Shown here: one piece after another, positions 1-39,441 of the stretch
Layout of the letters: each line of letters begins with the position of its first letter
How positions within the stretch are numbered: the stretch's first letter is position 1
From: a virus
DNA length: 51,354 nt
IMG/VR virus record: IMGVR_UViG_3300048114_000266
Location: 1-51,354 of that record
Reading direction: 5' to 3' (one strand)
The notes under the pieces: generated by a model
Database searches by the model: none
Seen by the model: only the letters and a program-made list of their open reading frames with translations
Told to the model about the DNA's origin: nothing
Program-made: the position numbers and the translations under genes

Positions 1-583
1 CCGCTTTCAGTTTCCCCCATGCGATTGCACCGACGATTAGGCCGGCCCCGATTATCGGCCACCCGACGGCGGCGATTATCAGCCCGGCGGTAATCGTCCC
101 CCATTTCAGCGCGCCCAAGACGTCGCCGCCCATGATTTTCCCGAACGTGATTGCTCCCGTGATTGCCGCCGCGCCGATTACGGGCCATTTGATAGCCGAC
201 ATGATTGCGCCGGCCGATATGCCGCCGCTTACCAGCCCACCGATACCGCCCGAAAGTAGACTTCCCAAGCCGCCGGATAGGATACCGCCGGCCGCCGCGC
301 CACCGCCAAGCCCCAACAGCCCGCCGAACTTCCCGGCGATACCTCCTAATGTGCTACGTAGAATCGTAAAGCGTTCGTCGGCGTTTTCGGCTTCTTCGGC
401 CGCTTCTTCGGCTTGGTCGGCCGTTTGGCCCATTTCGTCGCCAAGTTCGCCGACTTGCGACCCCGCCGACCGTGCCGTTTGACCAAGTCCCGAATATGAT
501 TCGTCAAGTTGGCCGACTTGGGCACGGGATTCTTCGACGCCCGTAACCTTCGCTTGGTATTCGATAGTGCCGATTTGAACCAT
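1..583 (-). CDS. Tape-measure-like tail protein, N-terminal segment; the gene crosses the contig junction and continues at 51354..50419
   Basis: ATG at 583-581 with an in-frame stop just upstream (611-613). Frame stays open to position 1 and is in phase with ORF 50419..51345 when the 127-bp terminal overlap is collapsed. Translation begins MVQIGTIEYQAKVTGVEESRAQVGQLDE, then Gly-rich hydrophobic repeats. Sits directly downstream of the G/GT chaperone pair. Confidence 0.55.
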   Translation of the reverse strand, partial: MVQIGTIEYQAKVTGVEESRAQVGQLDESYSGLGQTARSAGSQVGELGDEMGQTADQAEEAAEEAENADERFTILRSTLGGIAGKFGGLLGLGGGAAAGGILSGGLGSLLSGGIGGLVSGGISAGAIMSAIKWPVIGAAAITGAITFGKIMGGDVLGALKWGTITAGLIIAAVGWPIIGAGLIVGAIAWGKLKA

Positions 584-628
584 TTGGGCGTATAGCGTTC
601 CCCGACCGCCTTAGCCCTTCGGCGTGCG

Positions 629-1138
629 TTACCCGTTGCGTGACTTCGCCTTCCGTTCTTGGCGCTTCCGACGCCGTTCGATTTTTTCTTCGCGTAGTTC
701 TTCGCGTTCGGCGTGAATCGACAAGCGACGGTCGACTTCGCCTTCGGTCATGCCGTCGGTCGACGACTTCGTGACGATTGCCGTCGGCGCGGGCGCTTCG
801 AAGACGCTGTCGGGAGCGTGGCGGTAGACGGTCGCCGCGACCACGGCACCCACAAGGGCGACGAATGTCCCGGCGTATTCTAAGCCGGCTAACGCCGTGG
901 CTACGCCGACGAAGGTGAACGGTGCCCAAACGCACGCGGCGACGCGACGACGCCCCACGCGGCTACACGCACGCCGCGCTACGGCCGCCAAGTCGTGACG
1001 ACGTTCGACGTGAACGCCGCGCCGGACGTCGCCGCGTATGTCCCGGCGCGTCAGCCCCGCGTTTTTCGTAAGAATGTATTCCGCGACTTCGCCTTGTATC
1101 TGCATTCCGCGAACGGTGCGCGCGGGGTCGCCGCGCAC
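629..1138 (-). CDS. T-like extension ORF, probably expressed as a G-T fusion by -1 frameshift from the upstream chaperone-like gene; own start (GTG 1138 or ATG 1105) uncertain
   Basis: ORF track 629..1138 lies in the -1 frame relative to 1147..1575 and is open across that gene's stop. Located between the putative major tail protein and the tape-measure gene. Has a hydrophobic segment and a basic C-terminus. Confidence 0.4.
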   Translation of the reverse strand: MRGDPARTVRGMQIQGEVAEYILTKNAGLTRRDIRGDVRRGVHVERRHDLAAVARRACSRVGRRRVAACVWAPFTFVGVATALAGLEYAGTFVALVGAVVAATVYRHAPDSVFEAPAPTAIVTKSSTDGMTEGEVDRRLSIHAEREELREEKIERRRKRQERKAKSRNG

Positions 1139-1146
1139 CGCCCGCT

Positions 1147-1575
1147 TTATTTTCCCCGGTCTTCGCCGCTCCCCGCGCCGAACGGGTCCGGCACTTCTTC
1201 GGTAAGGGCTTCGAAGTCCGTCGACATGGACGATAAGAAGGTCGCAAGACCGGGCACGCCGTCTTCGTGCGCCCCGAACCAGTCGACGACCATGTATTCA
1301 AGCATGTCCGTGTAGTAGTCCGAAGAAAGCGATTGCTGGGGCGACCCGTCGTCGCCTTCGCTGATTGTTAGGTTATTTTCTAACACTTCGTTCTTCTTCC
1401 GAAGCGGGACGTCGGCCTTCAATTCGAACCAGTACGCCCGCGCTTCGTCGTCTTCGTCGGGGTCGCCGGTCGTGACCCACACGGTGCGCGTCGCGGACTT
1501 GTCGACGGTCGCGTCTTCGAACGACCCAATTTCGTACCCTTCCGGCGGTTCAGGTTCCGGGGCGTCGTTTGCCAT
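1147..1575 (-). CDS. Tail assembly chaperone-like acidic protein (G-like)
   Basis: ORF track, ATG start, 142 aa, strongly acidic; sits between putative major tail protein and tape measure; ends in the slippery site. Confidence 0.55.
   Translation of the reverse strand: MANDAPEPEPPEGYEIGSFEDATVDKSATRTVWVTTGDPDEDDEARAYWFELKADVPLRKKNEVLENNLTISEGDDGSPQQSLSSDYYTDMLEYMVVDWFGAHEDGVPGLATFLSSMSTDFEALTEEVPDPFGAGSGEDRGK
1150..1156 (-). other. Candidate -1 programmed ribosomal frameshift slippery heptamer G_GGA_AAA
   Basis: Minus-strand sequence CGG GGA AAA TAA at 1158-1147 places a canonical X_XXY_YYZ heptamer on the last two sense codons of ORF 1147..1575; the -1 frame continues GGG AAA ATA AAG CGG GCG GTG... 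into ORF 629..1138. Confidence 0.5.
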
Positions 1576-1617
1576 GTCCGACGGGACGGGTAGCCGGTGA
1601 AAAAGCGTGTCGGTGCG

Positions 1618-2628
1618 TTAGGCCGGCGCAAGGTACGACGTCGACACTTGGGTATCCGTGACCAAGATTTGCGCCGTGTTCGGCGTAATCGTCACTTCGA
1701 CTTCGTTCGCACCTTCTTCGGGAATGCTATGGGGCGCTTCCGACAGCCCGATACTCCCCGCTTCGTAGCGGAACACTTCGCCCGACGGCTTGGTAAACTG
1801 AATCGACGCCGACCCCGCGTCGTTCGCGTTCAGTAGTTCGGTATATAGCGAATCGTTCGTCACGGTAATCGTCGCTGTAAGTTCGTGTTCGGCGTTCGCA
1901 TACAGCACTTCGAACGGGTCGCGGCCGGACGCTTCCGCGATATAGTGTCGCGGGTCGGCGTTGGTCGTAAGTTCGTGTTCGAAGTTCGTGACGCGGGCGT
2001 AGGAGTTTCCGAAAAGCGAAAGGTTGCTATTGACGTCGTCGAAAATCCACGGGTTCCGGTCGTCAGCGTCGACGCCCGTGGTCGGCGAACTTCCGGGCGT
2101 GACGCCCATAGCAAGCATGTCTAAGTCCGTGGTAAGCCGCCCTTCGTTATCGACCGAAATGGTCACGCCCGGCGGGACGCCGCCCGTGAACGTCCGCACG
2201 AAGTCGTCGGCCCCGCCACGGCCGAAGTATGCCGCTTCGATAGTGACCGACGGCGGCTTCTTGTCGTTCAGTACGTCGATAGTGTGTAGCGTCGTACCCG
2301 TTTCGCTGACTTCCGACCCCGTCGCGTCTAAGTTCGTGTCGGCGGTGACGGTGTCGTTCCCGAAGGCAAGCGCCACGGGGAAGCCGTCGACCGGGATAAC
2401 GGGGAGCGTGCCACCGTCGTAAGTCCGTTGCCCCGGATACTTGTCGGACAATTCGCGGGACGCTTCGCCGCTAATCGACCGTTCTTCAAGCCAATCAATC
2501 GACGGGTCGGGAAGTTCAGTTTCGCCGCTAATCTTTCCGAACGTGCGCGTGACTGACGCCGCCGTACCTTGTTCGGATTCGACCCCGACCAAGATTTGAC
2601 TGTCGTGCCGAACATACGGGTCGGACAT
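1618..2628 (-). CDS. Putative major tail protein
   Basis: ORF track, 336 aa, acidic Thr/Ser-rich; assignment is by position upstream of the G/GT pair only. Confidence 0.5.
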   Translation of the reverse strand: MSDPYVRHDSQILVGVESEQGTAASVTRTFGKISGETELPDPSIDWLEERSISGEASRELSDKYPGQRTYDGGTLPVIPVDGFPVALAFGNDTVTADTNLDATGSEVSETGTTLHTIDVLNDKKPPSVTIEAAYFGRGGADDFVRTFTGGVPPGVTISVDNEGRLTTDLDMLAMGVTPGSSPTTGVDADDRNPWIFDDVNSNLSLFGNSYARVTNFEHELTTNADPRHYIAEASGRDPFEVLYANAEHELTATITVTNDSLYTELLNANDAGSASIQFTKPSGEVFRYEAGSIGLSEAPHSIPEEGANEVEVTITPNTAQILVTDTQVSTSYLAPA

Positions 2629-2743
2629 TCTTATCCCCGAATATCCGCCGTCGCGCCTTAACGTTTAGTTACGGGTCGGGCCGGTGTATATGCGACAAGT
2701 TTATATGCCTACCCGTCCAAGTGGGTAGTAGGTGCGAACCCCT

Positions 2744-3310
2744 ATGACCGAAACCCAATTCGACGACACGACCCGAACCGACCTTACGAACGCCGACGTC
2801 GCGACCGACGACACGGTGCGCGTCGTTTGCATGAACCCGGAAACCGGCGAAGAATTCGACGTCACGGGCGACGTCGCCACGACCTACGCCGACCACAAGT
2901 TCGCCGTCGAAGGCGACGACGGCGTCGTCGTTATCCTGAACGACGACACGAAGGAGGTTCGCGAAGGGTCGTTCGCTGACGGCTTCGACACCGTCGAAGG
3001 CTTCCGCCCGGTCTTCGTGGAATTCGCGACCGAAGGCGACCGCGAAAACGTCGACGCTGACGCCGACGACACGCTTGTCTACGATAACGTAGTTCACGGC
3101 GCGAACGAATCCACGGGCAAGGAATTCACGAAGACGAAGACGGTCGAACACACGGGCGAAGTCTACGCCGAAGACGGCGGCGTGACGGCGTTCCGCTCCC
3201 CGGACTTCGACGGCGTCTTCTTCGTCGACGACGGCGGTACGGTCGAATACGACCCCGCTGACGAAGCGCGCGACCGCTACGAAGTCGGGACGTCCGGCCG
3301 AATCGAATAG
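2744..3310 (+). CDS. Hypothetical acidic protein on the opposite strand, embedded in the structural operon
   Basis: ATG at 2744 (ORF track alternative start 2732) preceded by the conserved promoter-leader cassette in plus orientation; begins MTETQFDD. Confidence 0.55.
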   Translation: MTETQFDDTTRTDLTNADVATDDTVRVVCMNPETGEEFDVTGDVATTYADHKFAVEGDDGVVVILNDDTKEVREGSFADGFDTVEGFRPVFVEFATEGDRENVDADADDTLVYDNVVHGANESTGKEFTKTKTVEHTGEVYAEDGGVTAFRSPDFDGVFFVDDGGTVEYDPADEARDRYEVGTSGRIE

Positions 3311-3339
3311 GCCGTCGGATTCGTATAGCGGCTTTTGGT

Positions 3340-3789
3340 TTACGTTTCGACTGAACGCGACCGCGCTTCGAAGCCGATGGTGACTTCGTAGACGTAGGCC
3401 CCGAAGGTACTATCGTCTAACGGCGTGACGTCGGCGAAGACCATGCGGTCGAAGTCGCCCGGCGTGTCCGGTCGTGACCTGTTGGCTTCGACAATCCGCC
3501 GAAATTCGCTGAATAGTTCGTCGCGACGGTCTTCGTCGGACGCCTTAATTTCCGCGAATATCGTCGCGTCAAGGTCTTGGGACGATTGGAATAGGTCGGC
3601 GTATTCGATACCGAACGGGGAGGTTTCGGACACTTCGACGTAGTCGTATATGCTTAGGTCGCGCCCCTTCCCCAAGTCGTCGGACTTGTCGATTGTCGGT
3701 TCGTCGTTCGACGTGTTCGCCGCGACCCATTCGGCTTGCAGTAGGTCGCGGAATTCCTGAACGATTTTTGTAAGATTTGGTTGCGTCAT
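3340..3789 (-). CDS. Hypothetical head-tail region protein
   Basis: ORF track, ATG at 3789, 149 aa, acidic. Confidence 0.55.
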   Translation of the reverse strand: MTQPNLTKIVQEFRDLLQAEWVAANTSNDEPTIDKSDDLGKGRDLSIYDYVEVSETSPFGIEYADLFQSSQDLDATIFAEIKASDEDRRDELFSEFRRIVEANRSRPDTPGDFDRMVFADVTPLDDSTFGAYVYEVTIGFEARSRSVET

Positions 3790-3792
3790 GGT

Positions 3793-4347
3793 TTACCCAC
3801 GCCCTTCTAATTCGAATACTTCTTGCCCGTTTTGCCGGACGATAACGAAGCCCGATTGCAGTAGCGTACCCCGGTCGGTCGCTTCGTCGGCGACAATATC
3901 TTGGGATTGTTCGAACGCGAATTCGACCGTGTCTTCGATTGCCTTCCGCGCGGCGTCGGGGTCGTTCGACCCTTCGTAGTTTTCAAGAAATTGCTCCCCG
4001 GCTTGTTTGGCCGCTTCGAACCCGCGATTCAAGAAGAAGACGCCGTCGGTCCCCGATTCGGCAATCGCCCCGACGACAATCCACGCGACATTACGCTGGG
4101 CTTCTTCGATAGTGTCGGCGTTTTCCTCCCCGGCCGCCCGAAGCCCAGCGTCAAGGTCGGCCCATTTCCGTTGTACCCACCCTAATAGCGGTTCGAACGG
4201 CGGCGACGTCCCCGTGTAGGACGTGGGGAATTCGACATATACCGCGTAGTCCGCGCCGTAGCCGACCGTCGCGTCGACGTCAAGATTTTCGAATACTTCG
4301 TCGATTTGCGACGAATCGACTTCGACGGTGACATTCGCGCCGACCAT
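3793..4347 (-). CDS. Hypothetical head-tail region protein
   Basis: ORF track 3793..4398 starts on GTG; first ATG is at 4347, 2 nt after the upstream gene's stop. Confidence 0.5.
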   Translation of the reverse strand: MVGANVTVEVDSSQIDEVFENLDVDATVGYGADYAVYVEFPTSYTGTSPPFEPLLGWVQRKWADLDAGLRAAGEENADTIEEAQRNVAWIVVGAIAESGTDGVFFLNRGFEAAKQAGEQFLENYEGSNDPDAARKAIEDTVEFAFEQSQDIVADEATDRGTLLQSGFVIVRQNGQEVFELEGRG

Positions 4348-4349
4348 GC

Positions 4350-5168
4350 TTAGGTGCGCTTGTATTCCCGAATTGTGTCTTTCGCTGAACTTTCCCACGA
4401 CGACGCGGCGTCGGATAGCGACGGCGTGTTCTCCCCACCGCTGGGGACCATTTCACCGAATTGGTCACTCCCGACGATTTGGGCGGCCGCAAGGAGCGCG
4501 GTAGCGTCGCTTATATCGCCCGGCACGTAGTCGCTGACGCCGTCCCCGTCGCTGTCGTATTCAGTCACGTCGTGCGGGTAGCCGTAGCGATAGGACACGC
4601 GCACTTCGGCCATGCCGTCTTCTAACGTCGGGCCGTGGGTTTGCGTCCCGACCGGCGTCAGTAGTTGAATGTCGGGCCGGAGTATCCCCTTCCGATTCGA
4701 TACGACATAATGCCCGTCGGCCCGCCCTTCGTCTTCGGTAATGTCGTTTACCGACCGGGGATTCAGCACTTCGACCATGTCGCCTTCCGTCGACGTAATA
4801 GGTTTGATATGGGTATGGGGAAGGTCGACAAATCCGCGTTGGTCGACTTGGAAATTTTGGCGATTGTTCCGACCGCCGCGAATCCGACGTCGGCGGTGGC
4901 GCGTGTGCTTTTGCTTGTGCGACAGTTTGATTTTTAATTCGGCGTCGACGACCTTCCGGGTCCGCCAAGCGCGCTTCGTTTCGCTGTCGACCTTTTCGGA
5001 CTTGTTCGCGATTATCTTGTCGACTTGGTCTTGCGTCAGCGCCCCCTTCGACGCGTCGCTTACCGTTTCCGGTAGGTCTTGGTACTTCTTGTTACGAATG
5101 TGGGCGAAGACGTCTTCGGGAGCGCAATACACGACGTCTTCGTCGACTAATCGGGTGTCGACGGGCAT
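4350..5168 (-). CDS. Hypothetical head-tail region protein
   Basis: ORF track, ATG at 5168, 272 aa. Confidence 0.5.
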   Translation of the reverse strand: MPVDTRLVDEDVVYCAPEDVFAHIRNKKYQDLPETVSDASKGALTQDQVDKIIANKSEKVDSETKRAWRTRKVVDAELKIKLSHKQKHTRHRRRRIRGGRNNRQNFQVDQRGFVDLPHTHIKPITSTEGDMVEVLNPRSVNDITEDEGRADGHYVVSNRKGILRPDIQLLTPVGTQTHGPTLEDGMAEVRVSYRYGYPHDVTEYDSDGDGVSDYVPGDISDATALLAAAQIVGSDQFGEMVPSGGENTPSLSDAASSWESSAKDTIREYKRT

Positions 5169-5244
5169 ATCTACACGTTAGACGGTCGCGCGGCTATGTA
5201 AACCTTCGCGGCGAAGAAGAAGGCGGTCGGCGTATGGGCGACGT

Positions 5245-5523
5245 CTACTTGCCGCCTTGTTCGTGAATCAGTACGTTCACGGTCGCGTCGCCGGTCCCCG
5301 TGATTGTCGCTTGCGTCGACCCGACTGAAGACGGGTGCGCGGCGTCGGCCGTCTTCGATTGGGCGACGATTACGGGTTCGGCCGGAAGGTCGCCACCGAC
5401 GCCGGGAAGTTCGTCGGCGTAGGTAAGCGTGGCCGACCCCGACGAAAGGGTGACTTGTCCGGCCCACACGCGACCGCTCCCGTTCGGGTCGGCCTTGCCG
5501 CCTTTGACTTGTTCGAATGGCAT
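5245..5523 (-). CDS. Small protein downstream of the capsid gene (possible head decoration protein)
   Basis: ORF track, ATG at 5523, 92 aa, Gly/Thr/Ser-rich. Confidence 0.45.
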   Translation of the reverse strand: MPFEQVKGGKADPNGSGRVWAGQVTLSSGSATLTYADELPGVGGDLPAEPVIVAQSKTADAAHPSSVGSTQATITGTGDATVNVLIHEQGGK

Positions 5524-5530
5524 GGGTGGA

Positions 5531-6736
5531 TTACGCTAAGTTGTAGCGGCCGACGATACGACTGTCGGGGGCGCTTGCCGCAAGCGTCCCGTAGGCGTCG
5601 ACAGCGACGTCTTCTTGCGGCGTGGTGCGCGCAAGCGGGTGAAGCGTCGTGTCTTGAAGCATGGCCATGACGATAGTCGACATGTCCATGCCGACCAACA
5701 GACGCGACCCTTCGACGTCCGGGCACCCGTGCGATTCAAGCACCGGAACCCCGTCGATATTCAGCGCGCGGAACCCGAAGTTCAGTTCGTCGCCGGGCGA
5801 CGTGTAGCGCACGAAGTCGTCGACGGATTCTTTCAGGTCTTCGAAGGTCTTGTGGTCGGTGACGAAGACCAAGTCGTCGTAGTCGGCACCTTCGCGGCGA
5901 AGTTTCCGAATGTCCGTGCGGACGTCGCTTTCCGTGACGGTCGACCCCGACGCGTCGGTAAGCATGTTCGCTTCGTCGGCAAGGTCGAACAGTCCGTCGA
6001 AACTTGCGGCGTCGTTCCCGCTGACTCCCGCGACCGACCCGGTGCCCTGAATGATTTGGGCTTCTTCGTAGTGGCGAACGGAACGCACTAACGCTTCTTC
6101 CGTCAGCGAACGGGACGAACGAAGCGTCGACGTCGCCAATTGCAGGAAGTCGGTGACGGCCGTCTGACGGCCGTAGGGCACGACGCTGTATTCGTGCGTC
6201 GCGTAACTGTCGTCATTTTCGGGCCACGTTTCGTCGTTGCCCGAATTGCTACCGGGTTCGTGGAACCGGCCGACGTCGCCGTGTTCGGTAAGTTCGTCGG
6301 TCTTGTAGGTCGATTCTTGAATCGCGACGCGCGCCACCATGTCCGCAAGCGGCGTTTGCTTGCGGTCGGTGATTCGGACGTCGGGCGAAATGAAAATCGG
6401 GAGGCTAAACTGCGACGTGTCGGCCGCCTTCGACACGACTTCTTCGGCCGCCTTCCGAACCGACGCCCCGTCGCGAACCATGCGATTGAATTCGGTAAAG
6501 GCGTCGTCCCACCCGCCGTCGTACATTTTCGACACAAGGTCGACCACTTGGCCGCCCGTGTGGAAACCCATGTAGTCCTTGTAAAGGACTTCGTCGCCGG
6601 GAAGACCCGTTTCCTTCGAAACGGTATCCATCAGGTTCCCGAACGCGGCTTCGTGGGCTTCGACTTGTTCTTTCTTGCTAATCGTCCCGTTCCGTGCCGT
6701 CGAAGACTTGACGGTAGTATCGTAGTCGTTACGCAT
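5531..6736 (-). CDS. Major capsid protein (HK97-like by position and size)
   Basis: ORF track, 401 aa, ATG at 6736, immediately downstream of the scaffold/protease-like gene and portal. No fold search run. Confidence 0.6.
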   Translation of the reverse strand: MRNDYDTTVKSSTARNGTISKKEQVEAHEAAFGNLMDTVSKETGLPGDEVLYKDYMGFHTGGQVVDLVSKMYDGGWDDAFTEFNRMVRDGASVRKAAEEVVSKAADTSQFSLPIFISPDVRITDRKQTPLADMVARVAIQESTYKTDELTEHGDVGRFHEPGSNSGNDETWPENDDSYATHEYSVVPYGRQTAVTDFLQLATSTLRSSRSLTEEALVRSVRHYEEAQIIQGTGSVAGVSGNDAASFDGLFDLADEANMLTDASGSTVTESDVRTDIRKLRREGADYDDLVFVTDHKTFEDLKESVDDFVRYTSPGDELNFGFRALNIDGVPVLESHGCPDVEGSRLLVGMDMSTIVMAMLQDTTLHPLARTTPQEDVAVDAYGTLAASAPDSRIVGRYNLA

Positions 6737-6744
6737 TTTTCTGG

Positions 6745-8505
6745 TTAGTTGTCACCGCCGACCATGCGGGTGTTTGCGGACGCCGAATGTGCCGCTCCCG
6801 ACGCTTCGCTGTCGGCATTTTCGTCGTCGGTGACGCCGTCGTAGTCGACGCTAATGTCGTCGCCGTCACCGGACTTTTCGACTTGTTCGCGAAGGGCCTT
6901 TCGCGCGACTTCGGCGTCGTCGTGGCCCGTAATGTCCTTGACGATACGGTCGCCAAGTTGGTCCGGTTCCATCTTGTCCGCGTCGGGGTGTTCTTCGACG
7001 TCCGACCGAAGGTCGTCGACGTCGGACTTTAGGGCGCGCGCCCAATCCGGGGCGGCGTCCCAATCGACGCTGTCGGTGTCCGTCGACTTCGACACGTCGT
7101 CGCCGTCGCCACCGTCGGCGTCAGCGTCGGACTTGTCGACGTCGTCGGCGTCGCTGTCAGTATCGTCGTCGGACATGCTAATCCCGCCGTCGTCGCTACC
7201 GTCTTCGTCGTCTTCGCCCGACCCGTCTTCTTGGGTTTCGTCGCCGGTCCCTTCGCCCCCAGCGTCGCCGCCAAGGAATACGGAAAGGCCGGTGACTTGG
7301 CCTTCTTCGATACCTCCCGATTCGATAAGGGAGCGCACGAAGTCTTCGACAGTAGCGTCGCGCGACACCGACCCGTCGTCGACCATGCTACTGAATTCGG
7401 TAAGCATGGCCGACGCGGTGTCGGCGTTCATTTCCTGTTTGGTAGTCGTTTCCGTTCCGTCAGTCCCCGAATCACCGGGGTCGTCTTCGTCACTCATGCT
7501 AATGGTGTCGTAGTCGCACGAATCGGGTGTTTGGGCGGCAAGGTCGGCGACGTCGACGTCGACGACTTGCGCGGTCGCTTCTAACACTTCGACGTCGGGG
7601 CATTCGACCGAATCAGCGACGAAGTCGCGAATGTCTGATTCGTCGCGACCCGCTACTTCGGCAATTTCCCCGACCATGTCGGCGGCTTCGTCTTCCGATT
7701 CGGCAAGTTCCCGAATCTTGTCTTCGACGAATTCGCCGACGCCCTTCGACACCGATTCGTCCGCGTCGTCGGTTTCGCTCTTACTCATTTGCCCGTGCGA
7801 TTTGCCAAGAAGACTATCGACGTCGACGGGCTTCGCCCCGCCGTAAATCGACAGTCCGTTTAGGTCGCCCGACACGACGCGGTCCCACGTTTCGTCGTTA
7901 AACCGAATGCCCAAGACCCACGTACCTTCGGGGTATTCGCGGCTTTCCGTGCCGTCGGGCATTTCGAACGTCGTGTCTTGTTTTAGCGTCCAAGATTCGA
8001 CCGGCGTCCCCTTGCCGTCACGAAGGTCGTGGTCGCTGTCGACCTTGCGGTATTCGGAAAGGTATCGGTGGGCCGCGTCTTCGATAGCGGGCTTCGGAAT
8101 GACGTCGCCCTGTTTGTCGGCTTCTTTCGGGATTAGCACCGGGGCAAAGGCGATTTGCTTGACGTCGTCACCGCTGTCGTCGCGGTCTTTCTGAACGTAA
8201 AGCGTTGCCTCCGATTGCCAACGGTGCGACGACCCCGAAGGGTCGTCGGCGTCTTTCGCGATTACCCATTCGCTATCTTGTGCGGGCGTGTCTACCGGCG
8301 ACACGAATTCGACTTCTAAGCCGGTAAGGACTTCTTGGGCTTGCGGGTCGCTAAGGGCTTCTTTGCCTTCTTCTTCTAACCAGTTACAGAATTCTTCCGG
8401 GTCGTCTATGCCGGGTTCGTCCGACATAGCGGCTACGCACCCGTCAAAGGTGTCGAAGTCGTAGCCGGGGAAGGGTTTTCCGACTGGTTTTTGATTGTCG
8501 CCCAT
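6745..8505 (-). CDS. Scaffold or prohead-protease-like acidic protein
   Basis: ORF track, 586 aa, ATG at 8505; long low-complexity Asp/Ser/Gly tracts; lies between portal and capsid genes. Confidence 0.5.
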   Translation of the reverse strand: MGDNQKPVGKPFPGYDFDTFDGCVAAMSDEPGIDDPEEFCNWLEEEGKEALSDPQAQEVLTGLEVEFVSPVDTPAQDSEWVIAKDADDPSGSSHRWQSEATLYVQKDRDDSGDDVKQIAFAPVLIPKEADKQGDVIPKPAIEDAAHRYLSEYRKVDSDHDLRDGKGTPVESWTLKQDTTFEMPDGTESREYPEGTWVLGIRFNDETWDRVVSGDLNGLSIYGGAKPVDVDSLLGKSHGQMSKSETDDADESVSKGVGEFVEDKIRELAESEDEAADMVGEIAEVAGRDESDIRDFVADSVECPDVEVLEATAQVVDVDVADLAAQTPDSCDYDTISMSDEDDPGDSGTDGTETTTKQEMNADTASAMLTEFSSMVDDGSVSRDATVEDFVRSLIESGGIEEGQVTGLSVFLGGDAGGEGTGDETQEDGSGEDDEDGSDDGGISMSDDDTDSDADDVDKSDADADGGDGDDVSKSTDTDSVDWDAAPDWARALKSDVDDLRSDVEEHPDADKMEPDQLGDRIVKDITGHDDAEVARKALREQVEKSGDGDDISVDYDGVTDDENADSEASGAAHSASANTRMVGGDN

Positions 8506-8544
8506 ACTGTAAGCCGACCCTACGACGACTTAAAGACCGACCTA

Positions 8545-8558
8545 CCTAATATATAACC
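8545..8558 (-). promoter_or_regulatory. AT-rich TATA-like element of the capsid operon promoter
   Basis: Plus-strand taatatataa at 8547-8556 in the 275-bp portal/scaffold intergenic region, about 40-50 nt upstream of ATG 8505. Confidence 0.4.
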
Positions 8559-8780
8559 CGTCAAATCGGCGGCGTCGTGACTATACAGCGTTACTATACA
8601 GACGTCGAAAAGCCGCCGCGCCCCGTGACGAACGCGGCGGACACGACGACGACGCGGTGTCGGGCGTGAAAGGTTTGGTGCGAACCCTATGACTTGCCCG
8701 CGACCGACCGGACGGGTCGCCCCGTCACTTCGACGTAGCGTCGGCCCCATTAAAAGCATGTCGGGCGGAACGTCGACGCC

Positions 8781-11528
8781 TTACGTCAAGTGATTAACGT
8801 GGGTGTCGTAGCGGTCTATCCAATCGTATAGCGTGTTTGGCGACACCTTGCCCCGTTCTTCGACGTCGTATTCGTCGGCTTCGACTAACCGCCGATTGAA
8901 TTCCCGAAGCGCGCCCCGCTTCGAACCCGATTCTTCTAAGCATTCACGTAGGAGGTTCGGAACGTGATTGCCCAAGACGTCTTCTAATTCCTGCATACGC
9001 CGCGTGGGGTTCGTCGCCTTCGCGACGCGCTTGACGACGTCCGCATACGTTTCGTCGTGGGCCTTCGACGCTTCGACGGGTTCGACGTTCGCGTCGCCGG
9101 CTTCGAATTGGTCCGCGAAGTCGTCGGCCGACGGCACGTCGACGTCCGGCGCGTCGTCGCCGGTCCCCGGAACCCGCACGAACGTATGCCGTTCGTTCGG
9201 GTGAATCGTATGCTTGCGGAACGATAGGTTATCGAAGTATTCGTCGTGAACGTTCCGTTCAGCGTCGATTAGTTCGGGGAGCGTGACCGGCGTCCCGCCG
9301 TGGTCCGGGTTCGTCATGTCTTTCAGGTCTTCGCACGCGTCGGTCGTGCGACTGTCGTCGGGACCGACCCATTTGAACTTCGCGTCGTCAAGCCCACGGT
9401 CGCGATAGCCTTCTTCGCGCGCTTCGTTCAGTACCTTAGCCGATTCGGTGCGCGCTATCGTTTCCAAGTCGTCGGGGTCCGCACGGGGGAGCGCGTCGCT
9501 AAGATTGTCGACGATTGAATCTAACGACCACCCTTGCGGGTTCGTCAGCGCGTCGCTAAGCGTGTCTTGAATCGTAGTAGCCACACGTCCCGGCACCGAC
9601 GCGAAGTCGCTGAACACGGCCCCACGGTCGACGACGTCTTCTAACGCGGACATGACGAAGTCGGGGACGTCTTCGTCTTCGGCCCACGCCCGCTTTTCTA
9701 TGTCGTCAAGCGACTTCGGGGCTATCTGTCGGTCGAACGCCCGCAACAGCGTCGTGTCTAACTTCGCGACTTCGTCTTTCGTCAGTCGGTCGCGGTCGCC
9801 GTCCCCGTCACTCCCGTTTCCCGAATCACCCTTCGTCGTGGGGCCTTGTTCGACGGCGTCGAAGTCTATGTCGTCGAAGTTAACGCCGTCGTATTTGTCG
9901 ATAAGGTCTTGCACCGTTCCGGGGCCGACGCCGAAGACTTCCGCATGTGGGTCGTGGGTTTCCGGCGGGTTCGGCGGGTAAACGACGTCGCCGCCGTCAG
10001 TATTCCGCGCCCGTTTCACGTCGAAGACGACGCCGCCTTCGTCGGCAAGGTCGTCTAAGAAGCGTTCGAAGTCGCCCGATTCGTGGTCTACCGCTTCCCC
10101 GCCGACGTGATAGGTAAGCGGGACGCCACCCTTCGAACGGTCGACGCGAATGTCGGCTTCGTCGGGGTCGTCGACCGACCCGAATAGGCCACCGCCGCCA
10201 CCGCCACCGCCGACGTCGCCTTCTTCGATTGGTCCGTCTTCGACCACTAACTTGCCGTCGCGGAAGGTGACGTCGCGGCCGGCGTTGGCCATTTCCTTCC
10301 CGGCGGTCGCTTGCGCTTCGATAACGTCGGCGCGCGTCTGACGTTCGTCGGCGGTTTGCTCCCGTTCGAATTCGAAGGCAAGGTCGTCGCTAATTTCGGG
10401 CCACACGTATGCCCGGTTAAGGGCTTCTTCTAATTGGCGAAGGGTGACGCGGAAACCGCGCTGTTTGTATGCTCCTTGCTGGGATTCGTCGGTGGCGCGA
10501 TTGACGTTTTCGAAGTCGAAACCCGCATACGACGGGTTAACCTTGAAGACCGACCCCAAGACCGTGACCCAATACTTCGAACGGTCAAGAATTTGTAGTT
10601 CCTGATAATTGTGATTTATCGCTTCGAAGTTTACGGGCGTCTTCGAATAGCCGACGCGGTGGCGTTCCCCTTCGTCCAAGCGCATGGATTCGACGAAGGT
10701 TTCCCAATCTTCGTCGTTCGGTAGTCCGCCGTAATCGTCTAAGGCTTCCGGGGAAAGGACACCGGGCGGGCCGCCTTGCATTAGGTCTAACCGCTCCTTT
10801 TCTGCAAGTTCTTCTAACAATTCGACTTCGTTTTGGGCCTTTTCTAAGGGGCCTTGCCCATAAAATCGGTCGGGGCGCGACGACCATTCGACCCACACAA
10901 TATCGTTAACGTCGAATTCGTCGGTCTTCTTCCCCTTGCTTTGCGACACTTGCACGAAGCCTTCGGTAATCCCGTGCCGGTCGACTTGCTTGAATAGCGA
11001 CGCGCTGTCGACCGGGACAAGTTCGGCGACTTCGTCACTATCTTCGTAGTAGTGCTTGACAAGCGTCGCGTCGCCCAATTCCAACAGTACCCGCGTCGTC
11101 GCTTCAAGCATGTCGCGGAACGACGCTTGCGCGGGCGGCAATTGCCGCATGTGCCTTTCGACCTTCGCTAAGGCTTCGTCGGAAATGTCGGCGTCTTCGT
11201 CGCGGGGTTTAATCGACCAATTCGCGGCGGCGACGTCTTGCGATAGCGTGTCGATATAGGCTTGCACGACGGCGTTCGCGGATATGTCGCGCAAGAAGAC
11301 GGGGTCGTAGGGCTTCGTCTTGGCGTTACCCTGAACGGCGTCGCGAACGTCGTCGTTTACGTTCACGCGCCGGTTAATATCACCTCCCTTTTCCGCTGTT
11401 TCCGGGGAATTGTACCGCTTGCGGCGTCGTGACCGGACCCGCTGACGGCGTTCGCGACCGCTACGGGCGTCGCCGCCGTCCGCGAAGGGTGACGTAATCC
11501 CCTTGACAAATTTACTAAGGCGCGACAT
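8781..11528 (-). CDS. Portal protein fused to a MuF/SPP1-gp7-like head morphogenesis domain
   Basis: ORF track, 915 aa, ATG at 11528. C-terminal half carries IARTESAKV, WVGPDDSRTTDACEDL and HPNERHTF; a Gly8 tract (around 10186-10215) separates the halves. Confidence 0.6.
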   Translation of the reverse strand: MSRLSKFVKGITSPFADGGDARSGRERRQRVRSRRRKRYNSPETAEKGGDINRRVNVNDDVRDAVQGNAKTKPYDPVFLRDISANAVVQAYIDTLSQDVAAANWSIKPRDEDADISDEALAKVERHMRQLPPAQASFRDMLEATTRVLLELGDATLVKHYYEDSDEVAELVPVDSASLFKQVDRHGITEGFVQVSQSKGKKTDEFDVNDIVWVEWSSRPDRFYGQGPLEKAQNEVELLEELAEKERLDLMQGGPPGVLSPEALDDYGGLPNDEDWETFVESMRLDEGERHRVGYSKTPVNFEAINHNYQELQILDRSKYWVTVLGSVFKVNPSYAGFDFENVNRATDESQQGAYKQRGFRVTLRQLEEALNRAYVWPEISDDLAFEFEREQTADERQTRADVIEAQATAGKEMANAGRDVTFRDGKLVVEDGPIEEGDVGGGGGGGGLFGSVDDPDEADIRVDRSKGGVPLTYHVGGEAVDHESGDFERFLDDLADEGGVVFDVKRARNTDGGDVVYPPNPPETHDPHAEVFGVGPGTVQDLIDKYDGVNFDDIDFDAVEQGPTTKGDSGNGSDGDGDRDRLTKDEVAKLDTTLLRAFDRQIAPKSLDDIEKRAWAEDEDVPDFVMSALEDVVDRGAVFSDFASVPGRVATTIQDTLSDALTNPQGWSLDSIVDNLSDALPRADPDDLETIARTESAKVLNEAREEGYRDRGLDDAKFKWVGPDDSRTTDACEDLKDMTNPDHGGTPVTLPELIDAERNVHDEYFDNLSFRKHTIHPNERHTFVRVPGTGDDAPDVDVPSADDFADQFEAGDANVEPVEASKAHDETYADVVKRVAKATNPTRRMQELEDVLGNHVPNLLRECLEESGSKRGALREFNRRLVEADEYDVEERGKVSPNTLYDWIDRYDTHVNHLT

Positions 11529-16768: not shown

Positions 16769-18244
16769 CTATGCCTTGTCGACGTGCGACGACGTCGACG
16801 ACCCCGAAGACGACGACCGGCGGCTTTCCGTATAGATAGCGTACCGAAGCGCGTCGGCCGCGTGGTCGTCGACGTCGCTACCGCCGACGTCTTCTTCGGT
16901 GTAGCCAAGCAATTCCTTCCGCGTTTCTTCGCACCGTTCAGCGACCAACAGCCCCGGCCGACCGTCGGCGTCTTCCCGAAGTCGATACCGGACTTCGTCA
17001 ATCCCGGCGTCGACTGACTTGTCGGCCTTGCCCGCTTTCCACCCGCGCGACCGCATTTTCTGAATGTCGCCGGGTTCGTGTTCGGAATGGATTCGGCCGC
17101 TTGGCTTGTCTGAAAGCCAATATTCGTCGTGTCGCGGCCCGCCGATTATGTCTTCGACGTGCGTCCCCGAACGGTAAAATTCGTCTACGACGATATATTG
17201 CCCGGCGTGGGTCTTCGCTATTTCAAGCATGACGCGGGGGTCGTCCCACCCGGCGTCGTAGCCATACATGCGCCACGACCCGCCGATTGCCGTATCGTAT
17301 TCGGGGATTGTCCCGTCGGATTCGACGTCGACGACGTGACTATGCCGGCGGAAGTCCGAATACACACGGCCTTCGTCGGCTTCGAATGACCCGTGTAGTG
17401 CTTGGTTTTCCCTCCCCGTTCCGCCGTGAATCCGCCGGATTCGCGCCCGGTCGTCTTCCGTTAGGAATGGGTTATTATCGGTCGACGCGGTGATTAACTT
17501 CGTCCGAATGTTCAGCGTATTTCCGTCGGCGGGGTCGACACCTTGTTCTAAAATGTCCCATGCGTCGTTAAACCCGTTCCCGGTCGTCGTGATTAGGATA
17601 CAGCGCGGGCCGGCGGGCTTGTAGTCTAAGCGTTCGCCTATCGTCTTCCGAACGCCGTTCAGGTCGTCGTAATATGCGGCTTCGTCAAGCCACGCGAATG
17701 AGAATTTGCCACCGTCGTAGCGGTTCGGCTTGTCGGCCGACGCCAAGATAATGACCGACCCGTTTATCAGCGTGATTACGCCGTCTTGTTTGCTGAACGA
17801 CCGGACGATTGGGGAGTTTTCCGGGTCGCCGTCGCCCAAGAATGGGTCTAAATTCTCCCCCGGAAGTTCTTCGAAAAGGACGGGGTACGTCGTCTTTTTC
17901 GATTCGGCGTAGGTCTTCCCCATAGCCAAGACGCGCGCCGGGGCGAAGTCGTTCGCCAAAGCGACTTCGATACAGGTTCGCGCCCCGGTGACTGACTTCC
18001 CCGAACGGTAGCCGGCGACTATGCCGATAATGTCGAAGTCCCCGGAATAGACGGCCGTCCGCGCTTCCCGCTGGGGTTTCCAAAACGCCCACGTAATATC
18101 TATGTCAGTCCCGTCGACGTCGACGACCGCGCCTTCGCGCCGTAGAAGTTCGACGTCTTCGTCGGATAGGTCGGCCGCGCCCGGCGCGAATATCGGCGTG
18201 CCGTCGGGCGCTGTTAGCCGCGTCGGTTCGGAAGTCGTCGACAT
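16769..18244 (-). CDS. terL: Terminase large subunit
   Basis: ORF track, 491 aa; Walker A GYRSGKS, Walker B-like WLDEAAYY, C-terminal acidic nuclease-like region ending DHAADALRYA. Confidence 0.8.
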   Translation of the reverse strand: MSTTSEPTRLTAPDGTPIFAPGAADLSDEDVELLRREGAVVDVDGTDIDITWAFWKPQREARTAVYSGDFDIIGIVAGYRSGKSVTGARTCIEVALANDFAPARVLAMGKTYAESKKTTYPVLFEELPGENLDPFLGDGDPENSPIVRSFSKQDGVITLINGSVIILASADKPNRYDGGKFSFAWLDEAAYYDDLNGVRKTIGERLDYKPAGPRCILITTTGNGFNDAWDILEQGVDPADGNTLNIRTKLITASTDNNPFLTEDDRARIRRIHGGTGRENQALHGSFEADEGRVYSDFRRHSHVVDVESDGTIPEYDTAIGGSWRMYGYDAGWDDPRVMLEIAKTHAGQYIVVDEFYRSGTHVEDIIGGPRHDEYWLSDKPSGRIHSEHEPGDIQKMRSRGWKAGKADKSVDAGIDEVRYRLREDADGRPGLLVAERCEETRKELLGYTEEDVGGSDVDDHAADALRYAIYTESRRSSSSGSSTSSHVDKA

Positions 18245-18803: not shown

Positions 18804-19607
18804 TTAGTCGTCGATACGGCCGTCGTGGGTCACGTCGACGTCGCGGTCGTCGACCCCGACCGCCTTCGACACGACGCTTTCGATACTGTCGTGAACGCTG
18901 TCGGCGTCGTCGTCGGCGACGCCGTAGACGTCGACCGTGTAGGCGTGGCCGGCCGGGAAGTCGATACGGGCACACTTCCCGACTTCTTCTTCGCGCGACC
19001 CCTTCGTGACGACACCGCGTTCGAACACGGCGCGGACTTCGACCGTGCGGTCGCGGCGGGCGTGGTATCCCTGAACGCGGTCGCCTTCCCAATCGACGCT
19101 GACGTCGTCTATGCGCATGGTTTTGAGGTTCCCCGACCGCTTCGAACGGTAGTGAACCGTGACCGAAACGCCGTCTTGAACCGCTCCCGTGACCGGCGCG
19201 GATTCGGGGAAGTCGACGCGGTAAACGGCGTCGACGTCGCCCACGCAACGGTACGAATCGCCGCGCGACCATAGGCGGCCGTCGTCGGTGTAGGCGTAGG
19301 CGTCACCGTCGTCGTGGAACGTGTAGGCGCTGACGCTGTCGAAGTCGACGTCGGACGGGAAGCGGTCGGCGTCGAACGAAGACGCCCGCGTGGGCTGAAT
19401 CGCACGCACGACCTTCGTGTTCCCGTGCGACGTCGTATATTCGAATTCGATAGCCGTCTTTCCCGCGTCGTCGCGCCGGGAACCGTCGACGAACGACAGC
19501 CCCGTAAACCGGGAATACTGCAAGTCGTCGGCGTCGACTTCGGTTCGGCGTTCGCGGTATTCGGCGGCAATCTTGTCGTCGGTCGGCTTGGTTGCGTTTT
19601 CAGGCAT
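18804..19607 (-). CDS. Hypothetical protein
   Basis: ORF track 18804..19628; ATG at 19607 sits directly on the promoter-leader cassette; begins MPENATKPTDD. Confidence 0.55.
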   Translation of the reverse strand: MPENATKPTDDKIAAEYRERRTEVDADDLQYSRFTGLSFVDGSRRDDAGKTAIEFEYTTSHGNTKVVRAIQPTRASSFDADRFPSDVDFDSVSAYTFHDDGDAYAYTDDGRLWSRGDSYRCVGDVDAVYRVDFPESAPVTGAVQDGVSVTVHYRSKRSGNLKTMRIDDVSVDWEGDRVQGYHARRDRTVEVRAVFERGVVTKGSREEEVGKCARIDFPAGHAYTVDVYGVADDDADSVHDSIESVVSKAVGVDDRDVDVTHDGRIDD

Positions 19608-19664
19608 GGGTTCGCACCTACTACCCACTAACGGGGCTACGGTAATAAGTGTGTCGCTGTTGGC
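19608..19664 (-). promoter_or_regulatory. Promoter-leader cassette
   Basis: Gene-strand cagcgacacaCTTATTAccgtagccccgttagtgggtagtaggtgcgaaccc-ATG. Confidence 0.6.
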
Positions 19665-19907
19665 CTACCCGTCTTCAAGTTCGCGTATCTTCCGATAACA
19701 CGCGCCGACGACGTCGCTTCGCGGTTCGCGGTCTTCTTCGTCGGCCAATTCGACTTCGGCGTCGTAGTAGGCTTGTGCCCGGTCGGGGTCGGCAATCCCA
19801 CGAATCAGCGCGGCGATAGTCATGTCATTCTTTTCAGATAGCATTTTCTTCGGTTCGCTATCGTAGCCCGGCCCGTCGGCGGCCGCGCGCTGATTCGCTG
19901 ACGGCAT
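19665..19907 (-). CDS. Small hypothetical protein
   Basis: ORF track, 80 aa; start overlaps the upstream stop by 1 nt. Confidence 0.45.
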   Translation of the reverse strand: MPSANQRAAADGPGYDSEPKKMLSEKNDMTIAALIRGIADPDRAQAYYDAEVELADEEDREPRSDVVGACYRKIRELEDG

Positions 19908-20131
19908 TAGTTTCGGGCCGTCAGTTTGACGCGGTCGGCACTATCGTCGGGGACAGCGCCGTCGGGCACGACGTAGACTTCGCCCGTCTTTTCCAAGTAG
20001 TCGAACGCTTCTTCGACGTCAGCGTCGTCGTAGTCGGCCGCGACTTGGGCCTTGACGTCGTCGACCGGCCGCCCCTTTGGGCCGCCGCCGGCAATCGCGT
20101 CTTTCAGCGCGGCAAGGGCGTCGCGGTTCAT
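19907..20131 (-). CDS. Small hypothetical acidic protein
   Basis: ORF track, 74 aa; ATGA overlap with the upstream gene. Confidence 0.45.
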   Translation of the reverse strand: MNRDALAALKDAIAGGGPKGRPVDDVKAQVAADYDDADVEEAFDYLEKTGEVYVVPDGAVPDDSADRVKLTARN

Positions 20132-21978
20132 TCGTCACCTCCTACGCCCTTGTCCCAATCGACGGGCGTCCCGCAACGTGGGCACCGTGGCCCGGCGTGC
20201 CCGCCGCATTCGTCACACGCGGCTTCGTCATGTTCGTCGCACGAACACGACGGGACGAAGAAGTCTTCGGGTAGCGACTTCCGTTCGCACCCGTGGCACA
20301 CGTAGGCCGTGACCGGCTTCGCGGCCGGCGTCGACGCGCCGACGTCTACCCGGACGTTCCAAATCCCGAAGCCCGTGTCGACTTCGTGCCATTCGCCGGC
20401 CTTGCCGTCACGTTGGGCGGCTAACGTCCCGTCGCCTTTGTCTTGTACCGCGATATGCACGTCGGCCGCTCCTTGCCGTCGCCGACTGTATGGGACGAAT
20501 TGGTCGAAGACGTCATTCCGTGGGAAGTTCAAGTCGCTTTCCGTGCCGAATTCCTTGCGGAAGTCTTCGATTTGTTCGGTCGTCGCCGGTTCGAAGCCCC
20601 ACGGTTCCCGCGCTTTCGCCCGGTCGATAATCGCGTCTAATTGGTCGCTTGTCCGGTCGTCGTCGGGGCCTTCCCACGCGATTCGGTAGGGTTCCGGCGT
20701 GTGTTGGGACATGATAGCCTGAACTATACGAAGGGCGTGTCGCGGGCCTTCGATTGGGTCGTGCGCCCATTCTTCCCCGTCGACGTCAGTCGCCGCATAT
20801 GTCCCTTCGGTCGATTCTTCGAAGTGACCTATACAGTCAGCGCAAAACGGTAGGTCAAGCGTGAACCCGCTTGGCAATTGATAGCGGCGAACCGTGTCGG
20901 TGTCGTTCGTACATTCGAACGTGACACACTTCGACCGAACCGGGACGTCGTTATTTTCGGCGATTGCGTCGGCGATTTGTTCGGCGACTTCGCGGGGGTC
21001 GCTGTCGGTCAAGAAGACGTCTATATTGCCTTCGACCCATTCTTCTATCGGGCCGACAGGCGGCCGGTCGGGACTTTCCAAATTGTCGACGGTGTCGTCT
21101 AAGGCGACACGAATGTCAGACGCGACCCGTTCGGCGACGTCTTCGGGCGTGTGTTCGTCGGTGATACCTTCCGACGCAAGGTCGTCGTACCGGGCGGCAA
21201 GGTCTTCGAACGCTTCGACCATGTCGACCGGGGCCGACGGGCCAATTTCTTGGTCGCGCCAACCGTCGGGGAAGTCCGACAGTCGGACGCCCAAGTCTTG
21301 AAGGCGGTCGTCAGCCCCGTCGCGGTCGGGGTCGGGAAGCGCGTGGTCGTAGTCGTCGACGACGTCGCGGAAGATACGAAGCGCGGACACCGACCGAAGT
21401 TCGTCGTGTAGCCGCGTGTCGACGTCGCCCAAGAAGGCGGCGACCGTGTCTTCGGACACGCCGACGACGTCGTCGGGGACGTCACGCACCGGGACTTCGA
21501 CGGGTTCGACGCGCGTTTCGACCGGACGAAGGTGAATCGTTAGTTCGTCAGTCGCTTGGGCGATTGTCGACCGCACGGCTTCGTCGGCACTAAGGCCGGG
21601 TTCGACGTCGACGTCGCCGTATTTCGCCCCGCCGTATGCCTTCGTCACGCGGACGTCGCCTTTTTCGATAAGCCGATTCACGAACGTCGGCCCCGTCGAC
21701 GGTTCGCCCATGCCGCCGTTCGCGAACGTTACGCGAACGTAATAGCGGGGTTCGTGGTCTTTCTCCCCCGGCGCGTGCGACCCCATTAGGTTCACCGACG
21801 CGATTCGGTCGTCGTCGGCGGCGGCCGCTTTGATAGCCGCGTGTAGTGCCGCATTCGTGGCGTGGTCGTCGCGCACACGCCGCCGGAAGTAGTCGTCGGC
21901 CGATACGGGGCGGAACGTGTCGCGGCCGTCAGCGCGTCGCGTGGCGGGCGCGTCGGCGACGTCGTCTTCGTCGGTCAT
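20128..21978 (-). CDS. Large hypothetical protein with C-terminal Cys-rich zinc-binding region
   Basis: ORF track, 616 aa; C-terminus CHGCERK ... CSCDEHDEAACDECGGHAGPRCPRCG. Confidence 0.6.
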   Translation of the reverse strand: MTDEDDVADAPATRRADGRDTFRPVSADDYFRRRVRDDHATNAALHAAIKAAAADDDRIASVNLMGSHAPGEKDHEPRYYVRVTFANGGMGEPSTGPTFVNRLIEKGDVRVTKAYGGAKYGDVDVEPGLSADEAVRSTIAQATDELTIHLRPVETRVEPVEVPVRDVPDDVVGVSEDTVAAFLGDVDTRLHDELRSVSALRIFRDVVDDYDHALPDPDRDGADDRLQDLGVRLSDFPDGWRDQEIGPSAPVDMVEAFEDLAARYDDLASEGITDEHTPEDVAERVASDIRVALDDTVDNLESPDRPPVGPIEEWVEGNIDVFLTDSDPREVAEQIADAIAENNDVPVRSKCVTFECTNDTDTVRRYQLPSGFTLDLPFCADCIGHFEESTEGTYAATDVDGEEWAHDPIEGPRHALRIVQAIMSQHTPEPYRIAWEGPDDDRTSDQLDAIIDRAKAREPWGFEPATTEQIEDFRKEFGTESDLNFPRNDVFDQFVPYSRRRQGAADVHIAVQDKGDGTLAAQRDGKAGEWHEVDTGFGIWNVRVDVGASTPAAKPVTAYVCHGCERKSLPEDFFVPSCSCDEHDEAACDECGGHAGPRCPRCGTPVDWDKGVGGDE

Positions 21979-22415: not shown

Positions 22416-22706
22416 CTAAGCGTCGGCGTAGGGAGCCTTTAGACGTTCGTCCGTCGCTTCGATTCGGACTTGGCGGTCGCCCCGTGTGGCGTACACGGGG
22501 AATTCGTGGGTCGACAGTTCATTAAAGACGTGGTCGGTGTCTTCAGCGTTCCAACTATCGCCAAGTTCGATTACGACGTCGCCCGCAATCCCGATAATGT
22601 CGTAATCGGGCTTTCCGTGAACGTTCGCGTCGAACCACGCTTCGACTTGCCGTTTCCAATAGTCGACATTTTCGACGGTCGTGTGTTCGAATGTGTTTTC
22701 GGTCAT
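22416..22706 (-). CDS. Hypothetical protein
   Basis: ATG at 22706 within ORF track 22416..22718; begins MTENTFEHTT; preceded by the cassette. Confidence 0.55.
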   Translation of the reverse strand: MTENTFEHTTVENVDYWKRQVEAWFDANVHGKPDYDIIGIAGDVVIELGDSWNAEDTDHVFNELSTHEFPVYATRGDRQVRIEATDERLKAPYADA

Positions 22707-22765
22707 AAGGGTTCGCACCTACTACCCACTAACGGCCATACGTACTTAAACCTGTCGCCGGTACA
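22707..22765 (-). promoter_or_regulatory. Promoter-leader cassette
   Basis: Gene-strand ggcgacagg-TTTAAGTA-cgtatggccgttagtgggtagtaggtgcgaaccctt-ATG. Confidence 0.6.
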
Positions 22766-23002
22766 CTACCCGTCGGCTTCGTCGGCGGCTTCGACAAGGG
22801 TGCGCGCTTCGGCAATCTTGTCGTCGACGCGCCCTTTGTGACTTCGAACGGTCCCGACAGCGACGCCAAGCGCGTTCGCGACGTGGGTTTCGGTCGCCCC
22901 AATTTCATACATGGCCACGAAGACGAACGCTTGCCGTTGCGATAGCGTCGTGTTTGATTCTATTACGTCGACGCGGTCGGTCAAGTCGTCGACGTCAGTC
23001 AT
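22766..23002 (-). CDS. Small HTH regulator (sigma-70 region-4-like helix-turn-helix)
   Basis: Internal ATG at 23002 of ORF track 22766..23272, overlapping the upstream stop as ATGA; contains LSQRQAFVFVAMYEIGATETHVANALGVAVGTVRSHKGR. Confidence 0.5.
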   Translation of the reverse strand: MTDVDDLTDRVDVIESNTTLSQRQAFVFVAMYEIGATETHVANALGVAVGTVRSHKGRVDDKIAEARTLVEAADEADG

Positions 23003-39420: not shown

Positions 39421-39441
39421 CGGGTTAGGTATTGCCTGATT

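Follow-up and report, generated by a model that had tools for sequence, protein, structure and literature searches.

A 127-bp terminal repeat that is very probably an assembly by-product: circular closure of a 51.2-kb haloarchaeal virus genome within its tape measure gene

The 127-bp sequence found at both ends of the IMG/VR record IMGVR_UViG_3300048114_000266 (51,354 nucleotides; the whole of this stretch is referred to here as the window) is very probably a by-product of the assembler and not a feature of the virus, and the genome of this haloarchaeal virus, of about 51.2 kb, closes into a circle. The record represents a new virus, as yet uncultured, that is related to the Haloarcula siphoviruses HHTV-2 and HCTV-2, and it is a useful, if unsurprising, addition to this group. 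In practice, the record is best treated as a closed genome of 51,227 bp, after removal of the final 127 bp and rotation of the start to a point outside the tape measure gene. If the contig is left untrimmed, gene callers split or miss the tape measure gene, and the repeat risks being reported as a biological direct terminal repeat (DTR). The one under-determined place in the assembly is the number of 126-bp units within this gene, which matters only for the inference of tail length or for comparisons among tape measures.

Positions 1 to 127 of the window are identical to positions 51228 to 51354 at 127 of 127 bases, a match with a chance probability of about 4^-127, and this is the sole exact overlap between prefix and suffix within the range of 100 to 400 nt. 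The start copy consists of one base (C) followed by a 126-bp unit, here called R (positions 2 to 127), which is the second of two exact units in the tandem repeat described below. The end copy is a redundant duplicate of positions 1 to 127, and trimming it leaves the 51,227-bp circle. The contig ends cut a minus-strand gene within codon 195. In the frame that opens at ATG 583, position 1, which is the same base as position 51228, is the first base of a codon. With the overlap collapsed, this frame continues at position 51227 as far as the stop at 50419, for a total of 1,392 nt (i.e., 463 amino acids plus a stop codon). If the ends are abutted without collapsing the overlap, the frame shifts after ...WGKLKAG and then encounters stop codons. 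The 5' part of the gene (1 to 583, minus strand) encodes residues 1 to 194 and the first base of codon 195, and the 3' part (50419 to 51227, minus strand), which joins position 1 once the overlap is collapsed, encodes the conserved C-terminal domain and ends with the stop codon at 50421 to 50419. In the ORF list of the uncollapsed window, a minus-strand ORF of 308 aa with a TTG start is found at 50419 to 51345.

The split gene is identified as the tail tape measure gene by sequence comparisons and by its position. The joined protein matches the tape measure family phrog_15478 (E value of 1.5e-9) over its C-terminal 78 residues only, and a Pfam search with the joined protein matched no family. 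With filters off, a BLASTP search aligned residues 1 to 455 with HHTV-2 gp49, which is annotated as a tape measure protein (22.6% identity; E value of 1.6e-16). The termini of the joined protein (MVQIGTIEY...AGVR) are the same in four full-length homologs (P0001, P0003, P0005, and P0006), found in other assemblies with the gene in the interior of a contig, and the N and C ends of the joined protein are colinear with these homologs. As in a classical siphovirus tail module, the gene is located after the tail tube gene and a frameshifted pair of chaperone genes and before the distal tail genes. The tail tube protein (1618 to 2628, minus strand) matches PF18906 (E value of 4.9e-23) and is 41% identical to HHTV-2 gp46. 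The chaperone pair comprises ORF1 (1147 to 1575, minus strand; 142 aa) and an open -1 frame overlapping it (629 to 1297, minus strand; listed as ORF 629 to 1138), which is similar to HHTV-2 gp48 and has matches to two families of tail assembly chaperones, phrog_35486 and phrog_25860. Immediately after the tape measure gene come two genes (48468 to 50415, minus strand) that encode proteins of 159 aa (49936 to 50415) and 487 aa (48468 to 49931). They are homologous to HHTV-2 gp50 and gp51, which likewise follow the tape measure gene in that genome. The downstream order is tape measure gene, 159-aa gene, 487-aa gene, a fiber-like 370-aa gene, and the baseplate gene.

The tail module has other features that can be read from the sequence. 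A slip site, G GGA AAA (1156 to 1150), lies in phase directly before the stop codon of chaperone ORF1 (1149 to 1147) and, together with the open -1 frame, gives the layout of programmed -1 frameshifting of the classical G/GT type, in this case in a virus of archaea. In the HHTV-2 annotation, the two chaperone ORFs are given as separate genes. Farther along the module, the G+C content falls to 0.545 to 0.556 at positions 46001 to 50000, compared with about 0.60 to 0.64 elsewhere. This region covers the genes for the 352-aa, the fiber-like 370-aa, and the 487-aa proteins and may be a recently exchanged host recognition module. Six of about 21 related loci also start within the tape measure gene. 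We considered whether tape measure genes are preferred breakpoints in the assemblies of this family, but these loci are short contigs that were selected for the C-terminal motif, and the count is uninformative for this reason.

Twelve proteins of the window are encoded in the same order on one continuous segment of HHTV-2 (L007, 3513 to 26087). The head genes of this segment are those for the portal (3513), protease (9727), capsid (11399), and two head-tail proteins (13409 and 14248); they are followed by the genes for the tube (15579), chaperone (17134), tape measure (18549), 159-aa protein (18830), 487-aa protein (19280), 370-aa protein (21520), and baseplate (26087). The first seven of these proteins are encoded at the start of the window and the last five at its far end. 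Because the colinear order spans both window ends, the contig ends are neighbors in the genome of a cultured relative. Each of the core genes was found once, namely those for the large terminase (16769 to 18244, minus strand; Pfam Terminase_6N), the portal fused to a MuF-like domain (8781 to 11528), the prohead protease (6745 to 8505), the major capsid protein (5531 to 6736; 50% identity to the capsid proteins of HHTV-2 and HCTV-2), the tail tube, and the tape measure. The genome size of 51.2 kb compares with 49.3, 52.6, and 54.3 kb for relatives. Taken together, the restored frame, the synteny, the single core genes, and the matching size leave little room for a false join. The original prediction had stated that the contig ends are identical over exactly 127 bp, that the reading frame is rescued only when the overlap is collapsed, that the split gene encodes a tape measure, and that the window is a circular or circularly permuted genome of about 51,227 bp opened inside a gene. 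The identity is indeed exact, with 127 as the only overlap length at 100 to 400 nt; the collapsed junction yields the 463-aa ORF and the direct join a shifted frame; the tape measure assignment agrees with the phrog_15478 match, the place in the tail module, the gp49 alignment, and the termini of the homologs; and closure is borne out by the restored frame and by colinearity with HHTV-2 across the junction.

The overlap was also predicted to coincide with a 126-bp tandem repeat, and TRF detected such a repeat at 51067 to 51354 (period of 126 bp, 2.3 copies, 96% matches). The terminal 127-mer has a third occurrence at 51102 to 51228, which brings the count to three in the window and to two in the collapsed circle. 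This third occurrence, which comprises the preceding C and the first exact unit R (51103 to 51228), is a real internal copy and creates the loop in the assembly graph discussed below. The circle contains two nucleotide-identical 126-bp (42-aa) units, at 51103 to 51228 and 51229 to 51354 (the same bases as 2 to 127), which together with a shared lead-in of 9 nt form an exact period-126 run of 261 bp (51094 to 51354). Diverged units lie in register with R on either side, including two older units at 50851 to 51102 (63% and 64% identical to R) and a further one at 128 to 253 (56% identical to R). The occurrence of units with 100% identity among neighbors with 56 to 64% identity fits a recent, possibly still unstable, duplication. 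The duplication in the tape measure gene is in frame and recent, and it is an ordinary feature of tape measures. The two identical units amount to an exact repeat of 135 bp, just longer than a k of 127, and this is the only exact repeat of such size in the genome; no other exact repeat in the circle is longer than about 62 bp. Nine 127-mers occur twice in the circle, with starts at 51094 to 51102 that are repeated at 51220 to 51228.

To characterize the point at which the contig opens, a de Bruijn graph with a k of 127 was built in simulation from the collapsed circle. The graph has a single in-branching vertex, the 127-mer starting at 51094, and a single out-branching vertex, which is window positions 1 to 127 and also the last 127 bases. 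The contig walk begins and ends on this same vertex, which explains both the length of the overlap and the position of the cut. The 135-bp exact repeat in the tape measure gene creates both branch vertices, with a small loop between them. In the proposed mechanism, the contig would be a closed walk that leaves the out-branching vertex along the long unique edge (128 to 51093), passes through the 135-bp shared segment, goes once round the small loop, passes through the shared segment again, and stops on meeting the start vertex for the second time. Such a closed walk in a de Bruijn assembler at a k of 127 would spell the same k bases at its start and end. We infer that an assembler of this type and a k of 127 were used for this contig. 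End overlaps of 127 bp have been described as a SPAdes artifact and called artificial (PMC5923482), and in another phage report, a 127-bp repeat was removed and read as circular permutation (PMC8104045). The initial remark that 127 is a k commonly used by assemblers agrees with the documented artifact, and the overlap is also the sole out-branching vertex of the graph.

As in the overlaps of circular contigs produced by SPAdes or metaSPAdes at a k of 127, the prefix of the window equals its suffix exactly, the overlap has the length of the largest standard k, and removal of one copy gives continuity of both gene and genome. Unlike the usual k-mer end overlap, the opening point is not arbitrary and falls on a branch vertex, the 127-mer is present a third time internally, and the loop count (i.e., the copy number of the unit) is not fixed at a k of 127. 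We also considered whether the overlap length could be set by the repeat period alone (126 versus 127 bp). This was rejected, as the sequence from position 128 onward departs from the next unit with the very first base. It is k that fixes the length of the overlap; the period determines only the location of the branch vertex.

The genome resembles those of HHTV-2 and HCTV-2 (Saparoviridae, Halohivirus) in size (51.2 kb versus 52.6 and 54.3 kb), in the colinear structural module, and in closing as a circle, as is expected if it is permuted. At the protein level, the capsid is 50% identical to its counterparts in these two viruses, the portal and the tube are each 41% identical, and the products of the genes after the tape measure gene are 32 to 37% identical. 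The window differs from them in the terminase type and in the central module of the tape measure, and there is no match at the nucleotide level. The genome is mosaic: the module from portal to baseplate (1 to 11528 and 44165 to 51227) is 30 to 50% identical to HHTV-2, and the terminase is 41 to 44% identical to its best matches, Humcor1, HSTV-1, and BJ1, and to Halorubrum tailed viruses. The comparison with the HHTV-2 terminase gave an E value of 0.019, and the enzyme is not of the HHTV-2 type. HHTV-2 and HCTV-2 are listed as having circularly permuted double-stranded DNA (PMC3950731 Table 1), and Humcor1, HSTV-1, and BJ1 are reported as headful or permuted, with the genome type of BJ1 flagged in the same table as not firmly established. 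The sequence of the window assembles as a closed circle without unique ends. In the virion, the DNA is most likely a linear molecule with terminal redundancy and circular permutation that result from headful packaging. Since the HHTV-2 terminase is barely similar, this view of packaging rests on the more distant Humcor1, HSTV-1, and BJ1.

Two other accounts of the contig ends were weighed against assembly of a circular sequence. In one, the 127 bp are a true DTR that marks the physical ends of a nonpermuted linear genome, as in HCTV-5 and HVTV-1. The presence of the same sequence at both contig ends has the appearance of a DTR, and some haloarchaeal siphoviruses do possess DTRs (583 bp in HCTV-5 and 585 bp in HVTV-1; PMC3950731 Table 1). 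This is the trait that the window shares with those viruses; unlike their DTRs, the repeat here lies within a coding sequence, has the length of a standard assembler k, and sits on a branch vertex of the k=127 graph. Ends at these positions would interrupt an essential structural gene, with each virion carrying it as two fragments until circularization, and the relatives by capsid and by terminase are reported to be permuted and are not DTR viruses. We consider a true DTR extremely improbable. In the other account, the closure is false: a shared 127-mer would link different copies of the tape measure repeat (from two strains, tandem proviruses, or a larger replicon), which would make the contig chimeric or fragmentary. 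The path joining the ends does run through a repeated k-mer, where graph assemblers misjoin, and the hydrophobic array described below is present in several different halovirus tape measures. However, the join restores the frame and gives a protein that is colinear from end to end with its homologs, the core genes are single, and the gene order across the junction is that of HHTV-2. The size of 51.2 kb fits those of the relatives, and no other segment occurs twice. A false closure is accordingly very unlikely.

At least two adjacent 126-bp units are present in the sample, and two is a lower bound beyond which the graph counts no further. Simulated circles with two, three, four, and six units have identical sets of 127-mers and of 128-mers, which is why two copies represent a lower bound, and a simulated circle with one unit lacks 117 of the 127-mers. 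The real genome would have the form U-P-(M-P)n-D with n of at least 1 (i.e., two or more units). Permitted sizes of the circle start at 51,227 bp and continue with 51,353 and 51,479 bp, etc., for which the tape measure would have 463, 505, and 547 aa, etc., respectively. The shortest word that separates two units from at least three has 137 nt (AGACGTCGCC + R + C) and exists only if there are at least three units. Because a word of this length suffices, reads of 150 nt or read pairs could have guided the assembler, and the single traversal of the loop may be right. The uncertainty in copy number that had been raised at the outset was therefore justified, and it is now narrowed to two or more copies, with two, three, four, and six indistinguishable at a k of 127.

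It is possible, although we regard it as unlikely, that the closure is right and the copy number is wrong or variable, with at least three units in the genome or in part of the population and with a longer genome, tape measure, and tail. The indistinguishable 127-mer and 128-mer sets allow for this, as does the complete identity of the assembled units next to neighbors with 56 to 64% identity, which suggests a recent and possibly unstable duplication. The tape measures of relatives also vary widely in length (369 to 730 aa), and one of them, of 666 aa (L013), has internal tandem repeats of its own. On the other hand, reads of at least 137 nt and read pairs separate two copies from three or more and are information that assemblers use, so the single traversal may be based on evidence, and 463 aa is within the range of most relatives (388 to 476 aa). 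We found no second assembly of the same virus with which to compare closure or copy number in IMG/VR, GenBank phages, an exact-protein look-up, or GTDB. An exact 45-mer across the 127/128 boundary had 0 matches in IMG/VR, and neither a tblastn search with the tape measure nor a blastn search with positions 44000 to 51227 gave a match among GenBank phages. The exact-protein look-up of the neighboring 487-aa protein returned nothing on record, and GTDB genomes scanned with the tape measure alignment contained no relatives. The protein, IMG/VR, and metagenome searches yielded relatives at no more than 62% identity, most of them with a different central region.

The repeated units are part of a longer hydrophobic array in the tape measure protein. 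Residues 133 to 328 (50827 to 51227, continuing at 1 to 187, minus strand) can be divided into 14 units of 14 residues that keep strict register, with Trp or Phe at the start of every unit (e.g., WPIIGAGLIVGAIA and WGTITAGLIIAAVG), and a 42-bp period is seen at 50871 to 50953. Three such units make up one 126-bp repeat (42 residues). The 196 residues of the array include 41 Gly, 35 Ala, and 31 Ile residues, and 13 are charged. At an E value of 1e-3 or less, 29 representative clusters among 1.84 billion proteins match the array. The six array proteins that were inspected are acidic and mostly of tape measure size (318 to 526 aa), with terminal domains unlike those of this protein, and among the closer relatives of this tape measure, most differ in the central region. 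Array carriers include P0002 (L043, 7600 to 9114), whose gene lies downstream of a tail tube gene; P0004 (L004, 10001 to 12193), whose 691-kb contig carries an integrase in the surrounding provirus-like region; and P0007 to P0025. A PDB sequence search found no match. The AlphaFold2 model of the 308-aa ORF (50422 to 51345) has a mean pLDDT of 51 and helices broken about every 42 residues, and it is too unreliable for use.

Both hydrophobic segments and periodic repeats that begin with an aromatic residue are known from tape measures. The tape measure of phage TP901-1 contains repeats of 11 or 18 residues with Trp or Phe at their start, and deletions in it shorten the tail in proportion (PMC5099701); about half of the tape measures in a survey contain tandem repeats (PMC13585406). 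As in TP901-1, the repeats of the present virus are in frame, periodic, led by aromatic residues, and located inside the tape measure, with length variation by duplication. They differ from those of TP901-1 in the period of 14 residues, the higher-order unit of 42 residues, the very hydrophobic composition rich in Gly, Ala, and Ile, and the rarity of the array. A related tape measure of 666 aa (L013, 4001 to 5998; IMGVR_UViG_3300019926_000156) carries several copies of its own, unrelated tandem repeat (...IGVVTGVFNRV...GVLRSGI.AY...), representing an independent case of tape measure lengthening by duplication in the same virus group.

As a general rule, tail length scales with tape measure length, and at an assumed value of about 0.15 nm per residue, each extra 42-aa unit would add about 6 nm to the tail, and a 463-aa tape measure would correspond to a tail of roughly 70 nm. 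A more far-reaching proposal is that the identical units mark an array that is now expanding and contracting, in which case tails in the natural population of this virus would differ in length by increments of about 6 nm, a polymorphism masked in short-read assemblies, and that the hydrophobic array, with its glycine-zipper-like units, is a distinct module of haloarchaeal viruses, swapped between otherwise unrelated tape measures and possibly inserting into the membrane during genome delivery. We regard this proposal as doubtful.

In the nonstructural half of the genome, five large minus-strand ORFs encoding 401 to 616 aa (20128 to 21978, 24040 to 25245, 32199 to 33821, 36221 to 37651, and 37841 to 39370) have no Pfam or PHROG match at an E value of 1e-3 or less. 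ARAGORN identified a tRNA-Leu with the anticodon TAA at 35439 to 35521 (minus strand), which lies inside the listed ORF 35073 to 35600. Seven promoter-like elements were found on the minus strand, each directly upstream of an ATG, at 19574 to 19668, 22675 to 22769, 25202 to 25296, 27653 to 27747, 33822 to 33874, about 37607 to 37725, and 39327 to 39421. They consist of GTAGTGTAACGGCGACAC; a sequence similar to an archaeal TATA box, TTTATTAC or TTTAAGTA; a stretch of about 10 nt; the strongly conserved TTAGTGGGTAGTAGGTGCGAACC; another 3 to 4 nt; and ATG ACC GAA ACC. Two of the copies share 62 nt exactly. The seven elements look like a repeated viral promoter with a conserved leader and first codons, heading transcription units of nonstructural genes.
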